Source: Candidatus Eiseniibacteriota bacterium (GTDB taxonomy: Bacteria; Eisenbacteria; RBG-16-71-46). Taken from it: 35,422 bases of DNA. A program made the position numbers and the translations under genes. Positions 24,731 through 33,858 of the stretch are shown one piece after another. Position 1 is the first letter of the stretch; the number at the start of each line of letters is the position of its first letter. The notes beneath the pieces are model-generated. The model ran no database searches. It saw only the letters and a list, made by a program, of their open reading frames with translations, and was not told the origin of the DNA. Where the stretch lies: contig JANLOX010000447.1 of the NCBI GenBank assembly GCA_031366795.1, forward strand, positions 1 to 35,422, written 5' to 3'.

Positions 24731-25492
24731 ATGCCCGCCCCCACCGTGGTGTTCCTGTCCGACGTCCATCTAGGCATCGAGTCCCGCGAGCGCGAGGCGG
24801 CCCGGGAGGCGCGCCTGCTGAGCTTCCTGCGTTCCCTTCCCGGCAGGGCGAGCGATCTCTACATCGTGGGCGACCTGTTCGAGTTCTGGTTCGAGTACGT
24901 CACCGCGATCCCCCGCCGCTACTTCGGGCTGCTGCGAGCATTGGATGAGATTCGCGAGCAAGGGGTCCGCATCACCTGCCTGACCGGCAACCACGACTTC
25001 TACCTCGGGCGCTTTCTCCCGGACGAGCTCGGGATCCACACCGCCGAAGGGCCGCTCGCCGTGGAGCACCAGGGCCGGCGCATCTGGCTTCACCATGGCG
25101 ACGGGCTGATGCGCGGCGATCTCGGCTACAAGGTGCTGCGCCGCGTATTGCGAAGCCCATTGAGCATCGCCGCCTACCGCTGGGTGCATCCCGATGTGGG
25201 CATCCCGTTCGCTCACTGGGCCTCGCGCTGGTCGCGCCATTCGCGTGGGTACCGCCCGCTCGAAGGCGAGCGCATGTTCCAGGCGATCGCGGTACCCCGC
25301 TTCGCCGAGGGCTTCGATGCGGTAATGGTGGGTCACTTCCACCACGTGTTCGAACGCCGCGAGGGCGCCCGCGTGTTCTACGTGCTGGGCGATTGGTTCG
25401 ACAGCTTCAGCTACGTCGAGCTCGGCAACGGCGAGTTCACGCAGCAGAACTGGCCCGCTCCCCCGCTTGCAGCGGTCGCGACGCGCGCTTAG
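24731..25492 (+). CDS. lpxH: UDP-2,3-diacylglucosamine diphosphatase (LpxH-like)
   Basis: LSDVHLG, GDLFEFW, GNHDF, HGD, GHFH and LGDW motifs. Confidence 0.85.
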   Translation: MPAPTVVFLSDVHLGIESREREAAREARLLSFLRSLPGRASDLYIVGDLFEFWFEYVTAIPRRYFGLLRALDEIREQGVRITCLTGNHDFYLGRFLPDELGIHTAEGPLAVEHQGRRIWLHHGDGLMRGDLGYKVLRRVLRSPLSIAAYRWVHPDVGIPFAHWASRWSRHSRGYRPLEGERMFQAIAVPRFAEGFDAVMVGHFHHVFERREGARVFYVLGDWFDSFSYVELGNGEFTQQNWPAPPLAAVATRA

Positions 25493-26403
25493 AAATGCGC
25501 GTTGAAGCCGAAGCGATGGGTGTCGCCGAGATCATCCTTGAGCGGCACGAAGGCGTAGTCGAACGAGAACGCCTGCATGGCGTAGCCCGCGCCGAAGCTC
25601 ACCGACGTCGCGGTGTCATTGACGCGCAGCCCCATGCGCAGGGCCGCACCACTGGCGTCGCCGACTTCGGCGCCGAGCAAGCCCAAGCCGTTGCGACCGC
25701 GCACCGCGCGGCCCTCGAGGGCGCCCAGCACATGCAGTCGCGTGCCCACGGGGCGCTCGTAGGAGACACCGCTCTGGAACGCCGCGGGCAACTGGACCGG
25801 CAGCCCGTCGGTGCCCTCGATCGAATAGTGCGCCGCGGCGCCGACGTTCTGGCCGCCCGCCGCCACGCGCAGGCCCGGCAGCATCGCGGGCTCCCACGTG
25901 GCGCCGAGGCCGAACGAGTAGGTCTGCGCGGCGAGATTCGAGATGCGCTCGCGCACGATCGCCGCCGAGCCACCAAGGCTCACGCCCGAGCCCAGCGAGT
26001 GGCCGTAGCCCAGGCCCAATTCGAGGTCGTGCGAGCCGAAGCTGCCGACGAGATTGCCCACGTCGTCGCGTTCGTCGATCGGTTCGGAGTACAGCGCGCG
26101 AATCGAGGCCGCGATGCCGCCACCGAACATGTGACCGCCCACCGCGAAATAATCGTGGCGGAGCTTCTCGAACAATTCGGAATGCCCGCCGGCGATTTCG
26201 AGACTCTTGGTGGTGGTCAGGCGCGAGGGATTCCAGTAGGCAGACTCGACGCCCCTGGTGAGCGACGAGTAGGCGCCACCCAGGGCAGCGGCGCGCGCGC
26301 CCGTCGGCACTTCGAGGAAGGCGAATCCCGGGGGAGCCGCGTACGCCACGGCGGCACAGCCCAACACGCACACCGCGAGTCCCAAGCTCAACTTCAATCG
26401 CAT
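25489..26403 (-). CDS. PorV/PorQ (UPF0164) family outer-membrane beta-barrel
   Basis: Signal peptide, FLEVPTGARAAALGGAY...YWNPS, C-terminal FDYAF...LGDTHRFGFNAHF ending in Phe. Confidence 0.85.
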   Translation of the reverse strand: MRLKLSLGLAVCVLGCAAVAYAAPPGFAFLEVPTGARAAALGGAYSSLTRGVESAYWNPSRLTTTKSLEIAGGHSELFEKLRHDYFAVGGHMFGGGIAASIRALYSEPIDERDDVGNLVGSFGSHDLELGLGYGHSLGSGVSLGGSAAIVRERISNLAAQTYSFGLGATWEPAMLPGLRVAAGGQNVGAAAHYSIEGTDGLPVQLPAAFQSGVSYERPVGTRLHVLGALEGRAVRGRNGLGLLGAEVGDASGAALRMGLRVNDTATSVSFGAGYAMQAFSFDYAFVPLKDDLGDTHRFGFNAHF

Positions 26404-26526
26404 GCGGATCTCCGAAGCAGACGCAAAGCGGGCCGCGTGATTCGCGGCCCGCCTCGAAGGGACAAGACCAGAAAACAGACTATCGGGCTCGACGGTGCTT
26501 CTCAACTCGACGCTGCTCGATGGGGC

Positions 26527-28062
26527 TTACGGATTCCAGTTGCCGCTGCCTTTGTGCCTGGGCCGGTCCGTCGACTCGGGTGGCGGTGATTGTTGCTGCG
26601 AATCGTCAGAACGCGGCTGCTCCGCCTCACGGTCCGGGCGTTGCGCGCCACGGTCAGGATTGCGCGGGGCCGGAGCCTCCTGCTTTGGCTGCGGCTGCGG
26701 CCTCGGCGTCCAGCGGCCCGGATCGGGGGCAGGCTGCTGCTGGCGTGTTTCGCGGCCGCCGCCACTGGGCGGCGCGGATCCGTTGTCGTTGCCGGGATTG
26801 TTGCCACTCCTGCCGGAGCCATTGTTGCCCTGGTCCCAGCCACCACGGCGGCTGCGTCCCGACTCGGGCGCAGGCGCCGGAGTGGGCGTCGCCGACGAAC
26901 CGCCGCCTGAACCGCCACGCGTACGCCATTCGCGTGCCCCACCACCGCTGCCGTCCGAGGGCGCGCCACCGACGCGTTCGCGGCGAATGCCGCTCGGCTG
27001 GCCACCGCCCGGCTGGCTCGTGCGATTCCAACGGTCGTGCGCGCTGGCGAAGTATCCCGGCGGCAACGTCGAGCCACCGCCATCACTATTGCCCGCGCCA
27101 CGTCCGGCCGTGCGTCCGCGCCAATCGGCAGGCGCCACATAGCCGGCCGGAGGGGGAGTCTTATAGCGGCGCAGCGGGCCTCCCCAGGTCGTGGTCCAGC
27201 GCTTCCAGCCATCCCACGATGAATACCAGACGCCCCCGCGCGAACCCTGCGGCCGGTAACGCGGCGGGCAATCCGTGCGGTAGACGTAGGCGTAATAGGG
27301 CACGTAGCCCGACCAGTACGTCGGCCCCCACCACCAGTTCGAGTTCACGCGGAACTCGAAGGCGCTGCAGTTCGCGTAATACGGGTCGAAGCCATCCCAC
27401 CACGAGTAGTAGCCCGGGCGGTGGCAGTCATTGCACAAGTAGCGTGGGTAGCGCACTTCGTTGTGCACGTAATACGAGGTGTAGGCCGTCGCGAAGGTGT
27501 GCGAGTTCACGCCTTCGGCGAGCACTGCGCGGCGGATGCGTTCCATGGCGACGAACGGGTCCCCGACGATCTTGCCGTCTGACGTCACGCCCTCGCTCTC
27601 GCGCTCGTCACTCGAAGTGTAGCCGAGCTCCTGGGCGCGCGGATCGGGCGGGCGCAGGTACCACGGCAGCTGGCGGAACGGTTCGTCGGAAGCGATCGCC
27701 ACGATGAAGCCCTCGCCCACCGGGCCCTCGACCACCATTTGCTCATCGTTGCTCTCGGGCAGCTGGAGTGCCGTGCCGCCATCGATGCTGGTGTCGTTGC
27801 CCTCGGTGGGAAACAACACGTGCACCGACCCCTCAGCGTCGATCTCGTAGACGATGAGGTTGGCGTCGCGGTTGGTCTTGACGCTCAGGCTGATGGCGTC
27901 GCCCGGCTGGTAAACGGCGCCGTCGCCGCGGTTGGAGCGGATCTTGACGTTGAGCGTCTGGGCGCCCGCCGTCACCGCCGTGGTCGCGACACAGGTCGCG
28001 AGCACCAGCAGGAACAGCGCGAGCCCTGCCCCCTGCCGGTTCAGCTTCTGGATGCGTGACAT
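26527..28062 (-). CDS. Exported DUF4384-domain protein with CxxCH motif, Trp/Tyr-rich segment and disordered Gly/Arg/Pro tail
   Basis: AAGGAG SD, signal peptide, YQPGDAI...YEIDAEGSVHVLFP...GPVGEGFIVAIAS (DUF4384-like), LCNDCH at 27421-27435. Confidence 0.75.
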   Translation of the reverse strand: MSRIQKLNRQGAGLALFLLVLATCVATTAVTAGAQTLNVKIRSNRGDGAVYQPGDAISLSVKTNRDANLIVYEIDAEGSVHVLFPTEGNDTSIDGGTALQLPESNDEQMVVEGPVGEGFIVAIASDEPFRQLPWYLRPPDPRAQELGYTSSDERESEGVTSDGKIVGDPFVAMERIRRAVLAEGVNSHTFATAYTSYYVHNEVRYPRYLCNDCHRPGYYSWWDGFDPYYANCSAFEFRVNSNWWWGPTYWSGYVPYYAYVYRTDCPPRYRPQGSRGGVWYSSWDGWKRWTTTWGGPLRRYKTPPPAGYVAPADWRGRTAGRGAGNSDGGGSTLPPGYFASAHDRWNRTSQPGGGQPSGIRRERVGGAPSDGSGGGAREWRTRGGSGGGSSATPTPAPAPESGRSRRGGWDQGNNGSGRSGNNPGNDNGSAPPSGGGRETRQQQPAPDPGRWTPRPQPQPKQEAPAPRNPDRGAQRPDREAEQPRSDDSQQQSPPPESTDRPRHKGSGNWNP

Positions 28063-28191
28063 GGTGTGAGGCTCCTTGGGGCCGGGGACCCGCCTTTCCG
28101 GCGGGGCGCTCCGGTGTCCGCTGCGTGATGGTCTACCCCGCATGGGGTAATCGTGCTCCCGTAACCCTGCTCGATCAAGCGCCCCCGCCTA

Positions 28192-29022
28192 CTAAAGCGC
28201 TCGCAAGGCGTCCCACACGGCGGGCCGGCGTACCCTGTTGGATGCGGGATTCAGCTCAGGGCGGGCCTTCAATTCGCGATTACCCGCCGCCACCTGGTAG
28301 GCCCAGTCCATCACCACGTGGCCGCTGGTGAGCGAACTCACCCGGAACTTCGCGTAGTGGTTGTCCTGGGTCCACACCACGTAGCAGTGGCCCGTGATCA
28401 GCTCGACCGTGCCGCTGGGCGACCAGCCGGCCACAGGGGCGAAATCGACGGCATCGAGCGTTGCACCGTAACCGGCGTCCTGGATCTCGGTGTCGGCGAA
28501 CGGCGCGATCATCAGATTCTGGCCCCCGGCGGCGCCGTAAAACACGTCGACCTGGCTGTTGCGGTAGGGCAGCACCGAATACGTCGAGAAGTCATAGCCC
28601 GCATGCAGCGAGTCGAACGCCGCGTTGCCCAGCGTCAGCCCGAAGCCTTCGGGACGCGGCGTGTCGTAGATCGTGTCGTAGGACAGGTCGCTCTCGTGAC
28701 CGTCGCGGTCGATGGCGGCGACCGCGTAGTACTCGGTCTGGCCGTTGGTGAGACCGGTGACCACGTACGAAGTGGTGGAGGTCGAGCCGATCGGAGTGTA
28801 GGAGCAACTCGCATCCGGGCACGGGCCGGTGTAAACGCGGTAGGCCACGACGTTCTTCTCGGTATTCTTGAGCCAGCTCAGGTACACCGCGTGATCGCCC
28901 GTGACCGTCTGCAGGCCGCGGGGTGCAGCGGGAAGGACCAGCGCGCGTGGCGCCACGACCGTGCCGTCGTTGCAACCGGCGAGCAGCAACACACCGAGCA
29001 TCAAAGCAAGAACCTTGCGCAT
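28192..29022 (-). CDS. Lipoprotein with fibronectin type III domain and HmuY-like C-terminal region
   Basis: AGGAGG SD, lipobox LLLAG-C, Fn3 (PAAPRGL...LSW...YRVY...GLTNGQTEYYAVAA), C-terminal YVVWTQDNHYAKFRV. Confidence 0.8.
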   Translation of the reverse strand: MRKVLALMLGVLLLAGCNDGTVVAPRALVLPAAPRGLQTVTGDHAVYLSWLKNTEKNVVAYRVYTGPCPDASCSYTPIGSTSTTSYVVTGLTNGQTEYYAVAAIDRDGHESDLSYDTIYDTPRPEGFGLTLGNAAFDSLHAGYDFSTYSVLPYRNSQVDVFYGAAGGQNLMIAPFADTEIQDAGYGATLDAVDFAPVAGWSPSGTVELITGHCYVVWTQDNHYAKFRVSSLTSGHVVMDWAYQVAAGNRELKARPELNPASNRVRRPAVWDALRAL

Positions 29023-29078: not shown

Positions 29079-29095
29079 CGCAACGCGCATGCCAG
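29079..29095 (-). promoter_or_regulatory. Sigma-54 (-24/-12) promoter for the lipoprotein-DUF4384-PorV operon
   Basis: Minus strand CTGGCATGCGCGTTGCG matches TGGCAC-N5-TTGC with exact GG-N10-GC spacing, ~57 nt upstream of ATG 29022. Confidence 0.8.
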
Positions 29096-29309
29096 TGAGG
29101 GCGCGCGGTTAGCCAGGGTGGGATTCGCGAAATTCAGGCTGTTTTCACCGTATTCACAGGCAATTGCGGTAGTTCCGTGGTGGCGGGGCGTGCGGCGGCG
29201 ATACAACTGTGCCGATCTTGCCGCACCTGAGGGGACGCTGGAGCGTTCGGGGGCTCGCTCTGGCGTGCGTTCGCGCGGGCTCGCGCGGATCGCTCACTCG
29301 CCAGCGGGC

Positions 29310-29397
29310 AAGAAAAAGGACACCGGCCGTGAAGCGAATCCGCATTTCAGCCGAGACATCCCCCAATGCTGGCCAATCTGCGAAGCGACCGGTGCCC
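29310..29397 (-). terminator. Terminal stem and U-tract of the putative ncRNA
   Basis: GGGCACCGGUCG (29386-29397) pairs with CGGCCGGUGUCC (29318-29329) over 12 bp, followed by UUUUUCUU (29310-29317). Confidence 0.6.
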
Positions 29398-29508
29398 TGC
29401 AACCTGGGATTGCCCGCAACACGGCCCGACGGGAGGCAGACACCACCGGGCCTGCCAATGAACACGTCGACACTTGTGTACGTGCAAACCCCAGGAACTC
29501 GTCACTGA

Positions 29509-29586
29509 GTACTTGGGAAATCGTTTGGGTTACGAACTCTGCTGACTGCTGCGTGCCTGGGAAATCGTTCGGGTTGCGATCTCTGC
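29509..29586. repeat. Two 34-bp imperfect direct repeats (29/34 identical, 10-bp spacer)
   Basis: gtacttgggaaatcgtttgggttacgaactctgc (29509-29542) and gtgcctgggaaatcgttcgggttgcgatctctgc (29553-29586). Confidence 0.92.
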
Positions 29587-29767
29587 CTTTGCTAACTTCA
29601 AGATCTGGTTTTGAAGCTCCAAGCTAGCCGGTCGTAGAACGTGGCGCTGTCGTTAGACTGGGGCTCGTACCCTGGCCAAACTCTACGGAACCGGCTAGCC
29701 CAGATGCCTGTCCGGCTTGCCTCACCGGACCGTTTTGGAGGTCCCCCCCCTCCGGCTGATATGTAAG

Positions 29768-29784
29768 AGCATCCCGCGTGCCAG
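29768..29784 (-). promoter_or_regulatory. Sigma-54 (-24/-12) promoter with no downstream protein gene
   Basis: Minus strand CTGGCACGCGGGATGCT: perfect TGGCACG, GG-N10-GC spacing; predicted TSS ~29757. Confidence 0.75.
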
Positions 29785-30101
29785 CGTCCGGGATTGGTCA
29801 GGCATTTATTTGTATCCGTCACAGTTGCAATACGTTATCGGAAACAATGAGTTCAATCGACGGGGGCCAAGCTGGGCCCAGAGGTGACAGAAACCATTAA
29901 GAAGATGATTAGATTTTGGATCGATCCCGTAAGCCGCTGCAATCGCGTGGCATAGCTGGTAATAAAATTTACAGCAACACATGAAACATATTTTATAGCA
30001 GGCGCGTTACATTCCGAGTCAACGCCGGACATGGCGAGGCCACGTTTGGGGACCCGGAAACGCTGCGTCGTGGCGGGGCGAACCCGCCGAAGGAACGCCA
30101 G

Positions 30102-33100
30102 CTACTCGGCGATCGCCGACTTTTCGATCCGCAGGGAGCGGATGCGGCCCAGCAGCGTGGGATAGCTCATCCCCAGCTCGCGGGCAGTGCGCGCACGGTT
30201 CCAGTGATTGCGCTCGAGGGCCTGCGCGATCATGCGCCGCTCGAGTTCGGAGACGTTGCTGCGCAGCGTGAGGCCATTACCCGCGGCCGTCGAACCATTG
30301 CCGTTACCGTTGCCATTCCCACTGCCATGGCCATTGCTGTGGCCATTGCCGTAACCGTGGCCATTGCCGTGACCCTCCGCGCGCGCATTAATGCTGTCGG
30401 TCATGTCGGGCGGCAGCAGTTCGGGGCCCAGTACTCCCCCCTCATCCGCCAGCACCACGAGACGCTTCACGGTCTTCTCGAGCTCGCGCACATTGCCGCG
30501 CCATTCGTGCTCCAGGAAGATGCGCATCACCGACGGCGCGATACCGTGCACACGCTTTTCCATCTGGCGCGAGTACACGTCGAGGAAGTGCTGGCACAGC
30601 AGCGGAATGTCTTCACGCCGTTCGCGCAGTGACGGCACGCGCACGGTGATGTCGTTCAATCGGTAGTAGAGATCCTCGAGGAAGCGGCCGTCCTTGATGC
30701 GTTCGCGCAGGTCCACGCCCGTGGCACAGATGACGCGCGCATCGACGCGATGGCTGCGCGTGGCGCCGACAGGGCGGATCTCGCCGCGGTCGAGCACATG
30801 CAGCAGCTTGGCCTGCACGGTCTCGGGCACCTTCTCGATTTCATCGAGGAAGATCGTGCCGCCGGCGGCCTCTTCGAACAGCCCCGTCTTGTCGCGCACC
30901 GCACCGGTGAAGGCGCCATGCACGTAGCCGAACAGTTCGCTCTCGAGCAGGTGCTCGGGCAGCGCAGCGCAATTGACCTGCACGAACGGGCGGTCGCGGC
31001 GATTGGAGATCTCGTGCACGGCCTGGGCGAGCAGGCCCTTGCCCGTACCGGTCTCACCCATGAACAGGATCGTCGCCGGGCTATCGCCCACCTTCTGGAG
31101 CAGCAGGGAAATATTCTGCATCTCGCGCGACTGCGTGATGATGCGATTGAGGCCCGGGCTGGGCTTGAGCTTGTCGCGCAGTTCCTTGTTCTCGGCGAGC
31201 AGCAAGGATCGCTGCGCCTCGACGATGGCGACCGCGGCGCTGTTTGCCAGCACGGCGAGCAGGTTCAACTCGCGCTGGCGGAAGGCGCCGAGCAGGCTGT
31301 CGTTCAGGCGATCGACGTAGACGAGCCCCACCGACTGTGAGGGGAAGTTGAGCGGCACGCACACCAGCGAGCCGACACCTTCGAGCGCATCGACGACGGC
31401 GCCGCTGAAGCGCGGGTCGGCCGTCACGCGGCTCGCGAATACCGGACCGCTCTCGGCGATCTTCTGCCCCGCCGCCTGTTCGATGACGCGCAGGATCTTG
31501 CGGGCGCGGTCGCGGCCGAGCCCGTGTTGGGCAACGACATCGAGCCGGCCACTGCCGTTGCTGAAGGCGACGAAGCCGCGATCTCCCCCCGAGTGTTCGA
31601 CCGCGAGCCGCACCGTCTGGCTCAGCAGGCCTTCCATGTCGGCGGTCTCGCGGAACAAGCGGTTCGCCTCTTCGAGCGCGCGGAATTCATTGCAGGTCGA
31701 CAGCGACACCGCGACGTACTGGCGCTCGAGTTCGCGGCGCAGCGCTTCGGCGCGTTCTTCGGTCGCGGGATCTCCCGCTTCAGAGAGCCACCGCTCCGCC
31801 TGCTCGAGCAGCGTCAGGGCCTGGTCAAAGTGTTCGCGTTCGGATTCGAGGCGGGCGAGTGTCAGCAACGCTTCCGCGGCCGGCGGCATAACGCCGAGCT
31901 GGCGGAACAACGTCGCGGCACGCTTGGCGGCCTCGGCCACGGGCTCGAGATCGACGCGCAACCGCGCGCTCGAGGGCAGTAGGAGGAGGCACTCCGCCCA
32001 AGCCGCGAGCGTGGCGCCGAGTTCATAGGTTTCGCACAGCGCTTCGAACACATGCGCGGAGCCGCGGATGCGCATCTCGACCGAGGCGGCGTTGCCGCGC
32101 AGTGCGTCGAGTCGCGCCAGCGCGCGCTCGGCGAACGCCTGCTCGATGCGATCGCCCAGCTTCTCGGAGATCATCGAGCCCGCGAGCAGCTTCTGCTGCG
32201 CGGCGTCGAGCTTCCCCGCGAGCAGGTAGGCGAGTCCCAATCGCGTCTGGAGTTCGGCGGCCATGTCGCCCTCGGGCGCCAACGCCATCGCCTCTTCGAG
32301 CGCCGGTTCGAGCAGCGAGATCGCTCCCGCCACATCGCCGCGGTCGAGCGCCAACTCACCGAGGAACTCGCGCGCCAGCAGCGCCTCGCGCGTGGCCCCC
32401 GCCTGCAGCGCCAACTGGTGGCCGCGGCGGTAGTGTTCGTCGGCGCGTTCGAGTTGGCGCCGCCTGCGGCAGAGCATGCCGAGCGCCAGCAAGCTGCTCG
32501 CTTCGCCCTGAACGTGGCCCGTTTCGCGGGCGATCTTCAGCGACTGGCGGAAGTTTTCCTCGGCGAGATCCCACTGGCCCAGGCGGTAGCGAATGAGCCC
32601 CAGGTTCTGGAGTCCCGGGCGCATGCGGGCATACAGCCCCGCGCGCTCGTCCAGACGCAACGCCTGCTCGAGGAAGCGTGTCGCCTCGCGCCACTCGCGC
32701 AGGTTCTTGTAGACTAACCCCAGGTTATTGAGGGCATTCACCAGCCCATCGACGTCATCGATCCGGCGGAACGTGGCGGCGGCGGACTGCAGCCAGTCGA
32801 TAGCTTCCTGCGACTTGCCGCGCCGCGCGCAACAGAACCCCAGCGTCACGCTCAGCTGCGCCACCGTGCGGTGATCGTCGGTGTCGCGGAGCACCTGGTA
32901 CGCCCAGCCCGCATAGCGCATCGAGGCGTGATAGCGGCCGAGCTCTATATAGGTGTTGGCGAGCCGCGCGGCGATGCCGGCGTTCAGGCGACGGTCGTCG
33001 AGGCGCCGCGCCAACTGGCGCGCGTCGCGCAGCACGCCGATGGCGGCGTCGAAGCGGCTGCGGGCGAATTCGGCTTCGGCGATCTTGCGCAGCACCCGCA

Positions 33101-33278
33101 CCCTGTCCAACACCGCCTCGTCACCGAGGCGCTGCAGGGCCAACAGGTACTGCTCCACCGCGCCGCCGAAGTGATCGGCTGCGAAGTGAAGGTCACCAAT
33201 CGACTCGCAATGCTCTGCAGCACCCTGTGAAGGGACAGAGCGATCACGAGCTTGATCGGGGGGGATCAATCGCTGCAC
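30102..33278 (-). CDS. TPR-GAF-AAA+ sigma-54 enhancer-binding protein with Fis-type HTH
   Basis: About 500 aa of TPR-like helical repeats (e.g. ALNNLGLVY, LQNLGLIRYRLGQWDLAEENF), GAF (SLVCVPL...GLVYVD), GETGTGK, GAFTGA, FLDEIE, WRGNVRELE, HTH (NRARTARELGMSYPTL). Start probably GTG 33278; the track extends it to TTG 33368. Confidence 0.92.
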   Translation of the reverse strand: MQRLIPPDQARDRSVPSQGAAEHCESIGDLHFAADHFGGAVEQYLLALQRLGDEAVLDRVRVLRKIAEAEFARSRFDAAIGVLRDARQLARRLDDRRLNAGIAARLANTYIELGRYHASMRYAGWAYQVLRDTDDHRTVAQLSVTLGFCCARRGKSQEAIDWLQSAAATFRRIDDVDGLVNALNNLGLVYKNLREWREATRFLEQALRLDERAGLYARMRPGLQNLGLIRYRLGQWDLAEENFRQSLKIARETGHVQGEASSLLALGMLCRRRRQLERADEHYRRGHQLALQAGATREALLAREFLGELALDRGDVAGAISLLEPALEEAMALAPEGDMAAELQTRLGLAYLLAGKLDAAQQKLLAGSMISEKLGDRIEQAFAERALARLDALRGNAASVEMRIRGSAHVFEALCETYELGATLAAWAECLLLLPSSARLRVDLEPVAEAAKRAATLFRQLGVMPPAAEALLTLARLESEREHFDQALTLLEQAERWLSEAGDPATEERAEALRRELERQYVAVSLSTCNEFRALEEANRLFRETADMEGLLSQTVRLAVEHSGGDRGFVAFSNGSGRLDVVAQHGLGRDRARKILRVIEQAAGQKIAESGPVFASRVTADPRFSGAVVDALEGVGSLVCVPLNFPSQSVGLVYVDRLNDSLLGAFRQRELNLLAVLANSAAVAIVEAQRSLLLAENKELRDKLKPSPGLNRIITQSREMQNISLLLQKVGDSPATILFMGETGTGKGLLAQAVHEISNRRDRPFVQVNCAALPEHLLESELFGYVHGAFTGAVRDKTGLFEEAAGGTIFLDEIEKVPETVQAKLLHVLDRGEIRPVGATRSHRVDARVICATGVDLRERIKDGRFLEDLYYRLNDITVRVPSLRERREDIPLLCQHFLDVYSRQMEKRVHGIAPSVMRIFLEHEWRGNVRELEKTVKRLVVLADEGGVLGPELLPPDMTDSINARAEGHGNGHGYGNGHSNGHGSGNGNGNGNGSTAAGNGLTLRSNVSELERRMIAQALERNHWNRARTARELGMSYPTLLGRIRSLRIEKSAIAE

Positions 33279-33695: not shown

Positions 33696-33858
33696 GTGAT
33701 TATCTACTCCTCTTGCCAAAAAGCGCGAATGTTGCCCGTCGCGCATTCGGGCGGTCGAGGGGGGACTCGCGTTGCGGCGCCGCACGGATGCATGAGCTGG
33801 AGTTGCGAGTAGCTCCGCTGCGGGAAGTATCCGCCTCATGTTTTGACAAGGTCAACGT

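Follow-up and report, generated by a model that had tools for sequence, protein, structure and literature searches.

A structured non-coding RNA gene lies on the minus strand of the window, a stretch of 35,422 nucleotides from a Candidatus Eiseniibacteriota genome (assembly GCA_031366795.1, contig JANLOX010000447.1). Directly upstream is the gene of a TPR-GAF-AAA+-HTH sigma-54 activator, which shares an operon with a small ORF. Downstream lie the genes of a lipoprotein, a DUF4384 protein and a PorV/PorQ-family protein. The RNA and the lipoprotein operon each have a sigma-54 promoter motif, and the activator operon is predicted to be driven by a sigma-70-type promoter. Table 1 lists these features.

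Table 1. Features of the RNA locus and its surroundings, with positions in the window
Feature	Position	Strand	Remarks
Lipoprotein, DUF4384 protein and PorV/PorQ-family protein operon	25489-29022	minus	Under the second sigma-54 promoter
Second sigma-54 promoter	29080..29094	minus	For the lipoprotein, DUF4384 and PorV-family genes; separate from the RNA
Non-coding RNA gene	29310..29757	minus	Predicted +1 at 29757; U-tract 29317-29310
3' domain, long hairpin	29318..29397	minus	Apical loop GGGGGAUG at 29364-29357 is the second G-rich loop
Hypervariable middle	29398..29617	minus	Twin 38-nt repeats 29586-29549 and 29542-29505; semi-conserved CCCGGW motif
Domain II, three-way junction closed by a long stem	29618..29704	minus	GGG-UACGAG-CCC hairpin (29672-29661) and GUC/GAC hairpin
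P2, variable hairpin	29710..29730	minus	Covarying pairs; missing in some relatives
P1, 5' hairpin with G-rich loop	29737..29753	minus	Predicted seed; sole element common to the whole phylum
Sigma-54 -24/-12 promoter of the RNA	29769..29783	minus	TGGCAC-N5-ATGC
Two AT-rich imperfect palindromes	29956..29998	.	Predicted activator binding sites, 29998-29980 and 29974-29956
TPR-GAF-AAA+-HTH sigma-54 activator gene	30102..33278	minus	Predicted activator and target; domains from Pfam; GTG start 33278 from conservation
Target site 1, UCCCCCCC	33258..33265	minus	Activator codons 5-7; loop of a small GAUC/GAUC hairpin
Small ORF, 106 aa	33375..33695	minus	First gene of the activator operon; unannotated
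Target site 2, GUCCCCCCUC	33757..33766	minus	Operon leader; complementary to P1
Sigma-70-type promoter, TTGACC-N18-GATACT	33826..33855	minus	From sequence; predicted driver of the small ORF and activator operon

The RNA gene and its parts

A sequence-only reading had proposed a novel, highly structured RNA at this place, transcribed from its own sigma-54 promoter. Comparative analysis confirms from sequence that the locus is a real, conserved, structured non-coding RNA gene on the minus strand with a sigma-54 promoter motif. All six helices listed in that reading are found on the minus strand where it had placed them. This strand folds with a z-score of -2.47 (2 of 100 dinucleotide shuffles are as good) and is favoured over the plus strand, which reaches only -1.06. 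The promoter motif is present as claimed and sets the predicted start of the RNA. A DNA search finds the element in 35 of 36 genomes of the same family. The family alignment has frame-breaking indels throughout, and the three sense frames hold no ATG-led ORF of length. A reading as mRNA or leader peptide was rejected, as there is no conserved ORF within the element.

The claimed novelty is supported too. At gathering score, Rfam 15 gives no match in the window and none in six distant loci; at E<=10 it gives three matches only, at chance level. ARAGORN reports no tRNA or tmRNA at the RNA locus, and no RNase P, tmRNA, 6S RNA or SRP model matches there. RNase P RNA, tmRNA and 6S RNA are each found on other contigs of the genome. 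The small SRP RNA has no match at the locus and none in the genome among the 150 of 333 candidates that were scored. Two RNase P RNA matches occur in the genome (G000:C361:8800-9189 and G000:C421:562-921), perhaps through bin contamination. A mimic of tRNA or Y RNA was considered and rejected: the T-loop-like UACGA is kept in family f1 only and varies in f2, f3 and f13, a gene for the Ro60 (TROVE) partner was not found in the genome, and ARAGORN found nothing. No description of such an RNA in Eisenbacteria was found in a literature search that covered mainly open-access papers. The family is real and apparently undescribed, and it is likely new to print.

The loop of P1 is open in the full-length fold. 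When parts are folded separately (60 shuffles each), z is -3.96 for the 5' 140 nt, -4.01 for the 3' 90 nt and -0.4 for the middle 218 nt. This middle cannot be aligned across the family and differs even in a genome of the same genus. The twin repeats noted earlier are real (2 x 38 nt, 84% alike) but lie inside this non-conserved insert, and several of the listed hairpins, including two in the middle, are likewise present but belong to a lineage-specific insert. A second CCCGGW-type motif is seen at 24 of 38 loci. The proposed length of about 450 nt fits the RNA of the window and is long for the family, where 29 of 30 loci have 319-491 nt and most have 320-380. Judged by eye, the RNA is roughly 110-190 nt long in f8, f10, f11 and f18. 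A terminal stem with U-tract is also there, but as an 80-nt long hairpin that was not scored as a classical terminator.

Covariation, which had been suggested as a check of the fold, is above shuffles in both domain II and the 3' hairpin. Domain II (64 sequences) has 86.7% of cells paired and both-side changes in 115 cells against 44 in shuffles. The 3' hairpin (59 sequences) covaries more strongly: 91.4% of its cells are paired, both sides have changed in 18 of 25 pairs, and 0 of 500 shuffles reach this value. Because each structure was drawn from the very sequences on which it was tested, and related sequences have a common history, the shuffle counts should not be read as probabilities. A covariance model of domain II has matches in 4 of 27 genomes tested, in families f1, f2, f3 and f13. 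Given its sequence-invariant stem and the repeated CCCGGW motif, domain II most likely binds a protein.

The apical loop GGGGGAUG of the 3' domain recurs in f1, f3, f4, f5, f6, f7, f9 and f16. A search of this genome for a separate target of this loop gave 12 candidate matches. A correlation of the loop with csrA was not seen, and the loop pattern also gives matches off the locus. Long-range kissing between this loop and CCCCAGU of domain II was rejected, since it shows no covariation and the loop keeps its GGGGG where the C-run is altered.

Other complementarities and motifs occur within the RNA. In f15 (L168, L169, L171), a AUCCCCCC run in the 3' part could pair with the RNA's own P1, and GAGCCCC of domain II can do so with the P1 seed in f13. 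In most family members, the activator ribosome site GAGGGUUCGA looks similar to the RNA segment GAGGGUACGA (29661-29672). This ribosome site is also complementary to the invariant CGAGCCC, and the mRNA side varies with no corresponding change. The f14 RNAs (L193, L207, L208, L213, L215, L218) have a conserved internal loop of their own, of the CAGCAGCGGGUAG type.

Distribution and neighbouring genes

The pattern of promoter plus GGAGGGGGG, the G-rich P1, is found in 164 of 206 genomes of the phylum, while a reversed control gives 3 matches. It occurs once per genome except in one genome. Families missing GGAGGGGGG mostly have a variant hairpin at the same place. A genome-wide pattern scan yielded at least 54 true homologues and 65 chance matches among the 119 matches listed. 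The named records among these homologues are mostly Candidatus Eisenbacteria. Two differently labelled records have activators 66% and 71% identical to that of the window and are probably mislabelled; three more homologue records carry other taxon labels. Among 120 metagenome stretches, most are chance matches.

Gene order is also conserved. The TPR-GAF-AAA+-HTH activator is directly upstream of the RNA in 45 of 46 oriented loci, the lone miss having a flank of 319 nt. The lipoprotein gene with its own sigma-54 promoter is downstream in 43 of 46, and the synteny misses are short contigs. At three f14 loci the lipoprotein gene is present with neither activator nor RNA beside it. In f10 and f18 (L177-L182), a short RNA form of about 110 nt is followed at short distance, without an intervening U-tract, by another conserved ORF inserted ahead of the lipoprotein gene. 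This short form may be an mRNA leader.

A small ORF of about 100 aa precedes the activator in nearly all loci compared. Its product has a signal-peptide-like start, a low-complexity linker, a G[DE]PD motif (sometimes doubled) and a C-terminal amphipathic or hydrophobic helix. It matches no NCBIfam family, and its Atlas clusters are unnamed. The product may serve the TPR activator as a ligand or act as its regulator. The downstream lipoprotein is encoded in 189 of 206 genomes of the phylum and has no Pfam family; its operon points to type IX-like export controlled by sigma-54.

The palindromes upstream of the RNA promoter are likely the site of the activator. Their pattern is found at 60 of 80 loci against 2 of 48 downstream regions and 0 of 80 coding windows, although it was derived from the same loci in which it was counted and the coding control is GC-richer. 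Palindromes of the GTGT-N-GCACAC type occur between the RNA and the second promoter (29208-29226, with equivalents in L004-L030); the strict pattern is met in only 5 of 48. They are unlike those upstream of the RNA promoter and are possibly the site of a different activator.

Metatranscriptomes give a weak hint of expression. Three RNA libraries from three studies hold one contig each, of 151-188 nt and with 1-3 letters differing from the window. These contigs match 29304-29478, 29315-29501 and 29328-29478. They are unstranded, come from runs selected by shared words, and leave the uncovered parts of the RNA uninformative. Their outer ends lie close to the 3' end that had been predicted. Among the pieces listed, the flanking genes have no equally close contig.

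Complementarity between the RNA and the activator operon

P1, the predicted seed, is complementary to the start of the activator gene. In the family of the window, this gene begins GTG CAN MGA GCG ATC CCC CCY GAT. Across 30 family members, one proline codon of target site 1 is CCC in 30 of 30, and the other is CCC in 27 and CCT in 2, so that the sole change is C to T. CCG is used at these codons in 0 of 59 cases, against 278 of 475 in the other 16 proline columns. Folding places the C-run in a hairpin loop (mean unpaired 0.68), not on the gene's own SD.

The match extends beyond this family. In 57 of 80 loci, drawn from 17 families, the best contiguous helix between a locus's own P1 and its activator start (-45..+66) ranks in the top decile, where the decile background consists of start regions of this one genome with rough gene calls. 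The same holds for 10 of the 17 families, which are not independent of one another. Outside the family of the window, 27 of 50 loci reach the top decile, and 23 of 50 have no top-decile match there. Controls reach the top decile in 10 of 71 cases for the neighbouring lipoprotein gene, in 42 of 720 activator coding windows and in 5 of 80 windows just upstream; the pairing windows and the leader site described below were picked after inspection of the sequences. L050 and L083, two loci of the family in which the activator frame is frameshifted, were left out of the pairing tests. Among 12 later metagenome loci, one of them a duplicate of an earlier locus and one lacking a start candidate, a top-decile match is found in 6 of the 11 with such a candidate, and the misses fall in lineages that had missed before.

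The position of the site near the activator start changes with lineage, from -38 to +53. Perfect matches of 11-15 bp are seen at L175, L176, L183, L209 and L212, and several matches cover the SD or the spacer. In f13 the match is partly plain anti-Shine-Dalgarno, and the f13 seed has a possible partner within the RNA as well. One genome of the same genus has a shortened C-run and an unchanged RNA. Taken by itself, this genome places the activator start 134th of 3097 in duplex energy and 410th once accessibility is included, so the case for the activator as target rests on conservation. The predicted net binding of P1 is -4.2 kcal/mol at the activator start and -11.8 at the leader.

In many loci whose activator start has no match, there is one 330-530 nt farther upstream, in the leader of the small ORF. 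The same promoter arrangement as in the window is present in most relatives shown. Of 63 leaders in which a promoter can be called, 36 match the locus's own P1 better than every coding control; for the reverse strand the figure is 15 of 63. In the family of the window and in f3, the leader site is mostly 5-20 nt past the predicted transcript start and about 100 nt before the first start codon. Most f14 loci have no good P1 site at either the activator start or the leader. Their RNAs possibly have a different target.

Some altered hairpins are accompanied by a matching change in the target: f17 (11 bp, both loci), f7 L196 (11 bp), f12 (13 bp at the activator start) and f16 L172 (9 bp). In a swap test, a locus's own P1 is the best partner in 5 of 13 variant loci, where chance among 8 types would give about 1.6, and in 16 of 24 standard loci. 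The 8 variant failures are all four f13 loci, both f8 loci, L197 and L214.

A matching change of both copies would also follow from altered specificity of a DNA-binding factor. GGAGG-N-CCTCC could be a DNA operator placed after both promoters, with P1 merely stabilising the 5' end of an RNA that has another job. Such a near-palindrome lies just past the predicted start of the RNA, and the operon has the inverse element in the corresponding place; reverse-strand matches beat the controls in the 15 leaders mentioned above; and in f10 and f18 the element precedes an ORF, lacks a U-tract and is possibly a leader. An operator is nevertheless hard to reconcile with a half-site spacer that varies within one family (6, 7 or 8 G) and is far shorter in the leader copy. 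Extra copies occur at several positions, coding sequence included, all in complementary orientation, and the changes in the proline codons are C to T, which G-U pairing tolerates. This explanation is considered very improbable.

Three other roles for the pairing were rejected. Activation by freeing the activator SD does not fit, as pairing between C-run and SD has a mean probability of 0.05 and SD access is 0.37 either way (30 loci). The downstream lipoprotein gene as target fits in the window by eye but is matched in only 10 of 71 loci overall. Global repression of mRNAs for exported proteins shows no enrichment among 997 genes (p 0.55-0.64). Further targets besides the activator operon are likely.

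Proposed mechanism and comparison with known systems

The favoured explanation, held with guarded confidence and a little above even, is a small RNA that acts by base pairing: the activator would switch it on, and it would in turn lower the activator, giving a negative feedback loop. Both the base pairing and the sign of regulation are inferred from sequence. The adjacent activator would drive the RNA promoter via the upstream palindromes. The open G loop of P1 would then nucleate on the unpaired mRNA C-run, which is a hairpin loop in the family of the window, and the CCUCC strand of P1 would lengthen the duplex. Where this happens near the activator start, in codons 3-7 in the window and over the ribosome-binding site in several other families, ribosome loading would be blocked. 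The leader site and the second G loop may provide extra contacts, making pairing possible without Hfq. The Hfq family was found in 0 of 206 genomes of the phylum, as against 5 of 14 in the control, which would fit pairing that is initiated by a loop through strong G-C contacts at more than one site.

The sign of regulation is read from where the sites lie. Repression is favoured because sites fall over the ribosome-binding region or the first codons. Pairing at the leader site has no predicted sign, because blocking it leaves predicted SD access unchanged (0.33 vs 0.32, 28 loci); it could affect stability or termination in either direction. The pairing might thus be real but positive, stabilising the operon mRNA or blocking Rho on the C-rich leader, and the result would be positive feedback and a bistable switch. 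The position of the leader site near the transcript 5' end in the family of the window and in f3, far from the ribosome site, is in keeping with this. Pairing at a 5' end that stabilises or antiterminates also occurs in other small RNAs. Positive feedback is thought unlikely, though, in view of the sites over the ribosome-binding site or first codons in f1, f3, f5, f6, f9 and f16, which fit blocking, and its anti-antisense version fails, since SD access is the same with or without C-run pairing.

Alternatively, the RNA may be mainly a sponge or scaffold for CsrA or another RNA-binding protein, as CrcZ or CsrB are, with the mRNA matches secondary. The invariant stem and the repeated CCCGGW motif would suit such a role, csrA is present in 179 of 206 genomes, and the GGAUGU at the end of the 3' loop, with its ACA/UGU stem, resembles the CsrA consensus. 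The gene layout is the same as that of cbrB-crcZ, with a similar role of the activator (PMC8871633). A sponge would, however, predict copies of the mRNA motif and not complements of it. The 448 nt hold 6 GGA and 0 A(N)GGA. No csrA was found in f10 (0 of 8), f13 (0 of 5), f6 (0 of 1) or f4 (0 of 1), yet f10 and f6 retain the standard P1, and f6 and f4 the 3' loop; nor was Hfq found in the phylum. Eisenbacteria CsrAs are seldom predicted to be functional by a hag reporter model, a result that, according to its source, does not imply inactivity (PMC13443453). A protein sponge is regarded as distinctly unlikely. Membership in the CsrB/RsmY type was rejected on the same absence of A(N)GGA and on the presence of the RNA in families in which no csrA was found.

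The negative feedback could be part of a larger circuit, which is put forward as doubtful. In it, the secreted G[DE]PD protein would give a signal for the TPR domain of the activator, the activator would make the RNA, and the RNA would shut down the operon without Hfq. Kissing of the G loop with the C loop, together with a protein-bound domain II, would silence the operon of signal and activator, and the circuit would gate the PorV-linked export operon. If true, it would be a phylum-wide system resembling quorum sensing, built from parts unrelated to any known one.

The closest comparison can be found in LuxO-Qrr of Vibrio. Qrr RNAs are about 100 nt long. They also need Hfq, whereas the Eisenbacteria RNA occurs where no Hfq was found. 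The latter has 320-490 nt, is multi-domain in the family of the window and carries its seed as a G loop in a 5' hairpin. The Eisenbacteria activator has TPR and GAF domains but no receiver domain. Alike in both are a sigma-54 promoter with its cognate activator, predicted for the Eisenbacteria RNA from motif and synteny, and a conserved complementarity to the activator mRNA. Qrr RNAs are made under a sigma-54 activator (PMC10162802), and they repress luxO by base pairing in a negative feedback loop (PMC3262071). By analogy, the RNA would work most like LuxO-Qrr, and repression of the activator is predicted from its sites. Membership among the Qrr RNAs was rejected, as there is no sequence match to them and no Hfq was found.

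Other systems share single features. In PxrR-Pxr of Myxococcus, the gene of an NtrC-like activator is immediately upstream of the small RNA, for which a sigma-54 promoter and an enhancer region are predicted (PMC5684412). It differs in that pxrR, according to that source, is not among the predicted targets of Pxr, and the Eisenbacteria RNA has no Rfam match. In CbrB-CrcZ of Pseudomonas, the RNA gene is downstream of a sigma-N activator, with conserved synteny (PMC8871633). CrcZ, in contrast, sequesters Hfq/Crc, and the Eisenbacteria RNA is highly paired; membership in CrcZ/CrcY was rejected, there being no Hfq to sequester (0 of 206).

Loop pairing through homopolymer-like tracts is known from two RNAs. 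RNAIII of Staphylococcus aureus uses several loops and makes two loop-loop contacts on rot (PMC8383071). RepG of Helicobacter pylori targets a G-repeat in a leader (PMC8295292). The polarity here is reversed, with the G-rich loop on the RNA and the C-tracts on the mRNA, and there is no sequence relation to either. Pairing of a small RNA with the operon of its regulator is described for NfeR1 (PMC10746234). The RNA belongs to none of the systems compared.

The comparison suggests that the feedback design of Vibrio, with activator, sigma-54 and small RNA, arose independently from different parts and without Hfq. A G-rich loop is found here where known loop-pairing RNAs have C-rich ones. The family also offers a natural experiment, in which a constant 15-nt seed is carried on bodies of about 110 to 490 nt and the target sites have shifted among leader, ribosome site and coding sequence. 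With it, an uncultured phylum gains a conserved family of regulatory RNA for which a target is predicted and a seed can be put to the test; few RNAs known only from genomes offer as much.
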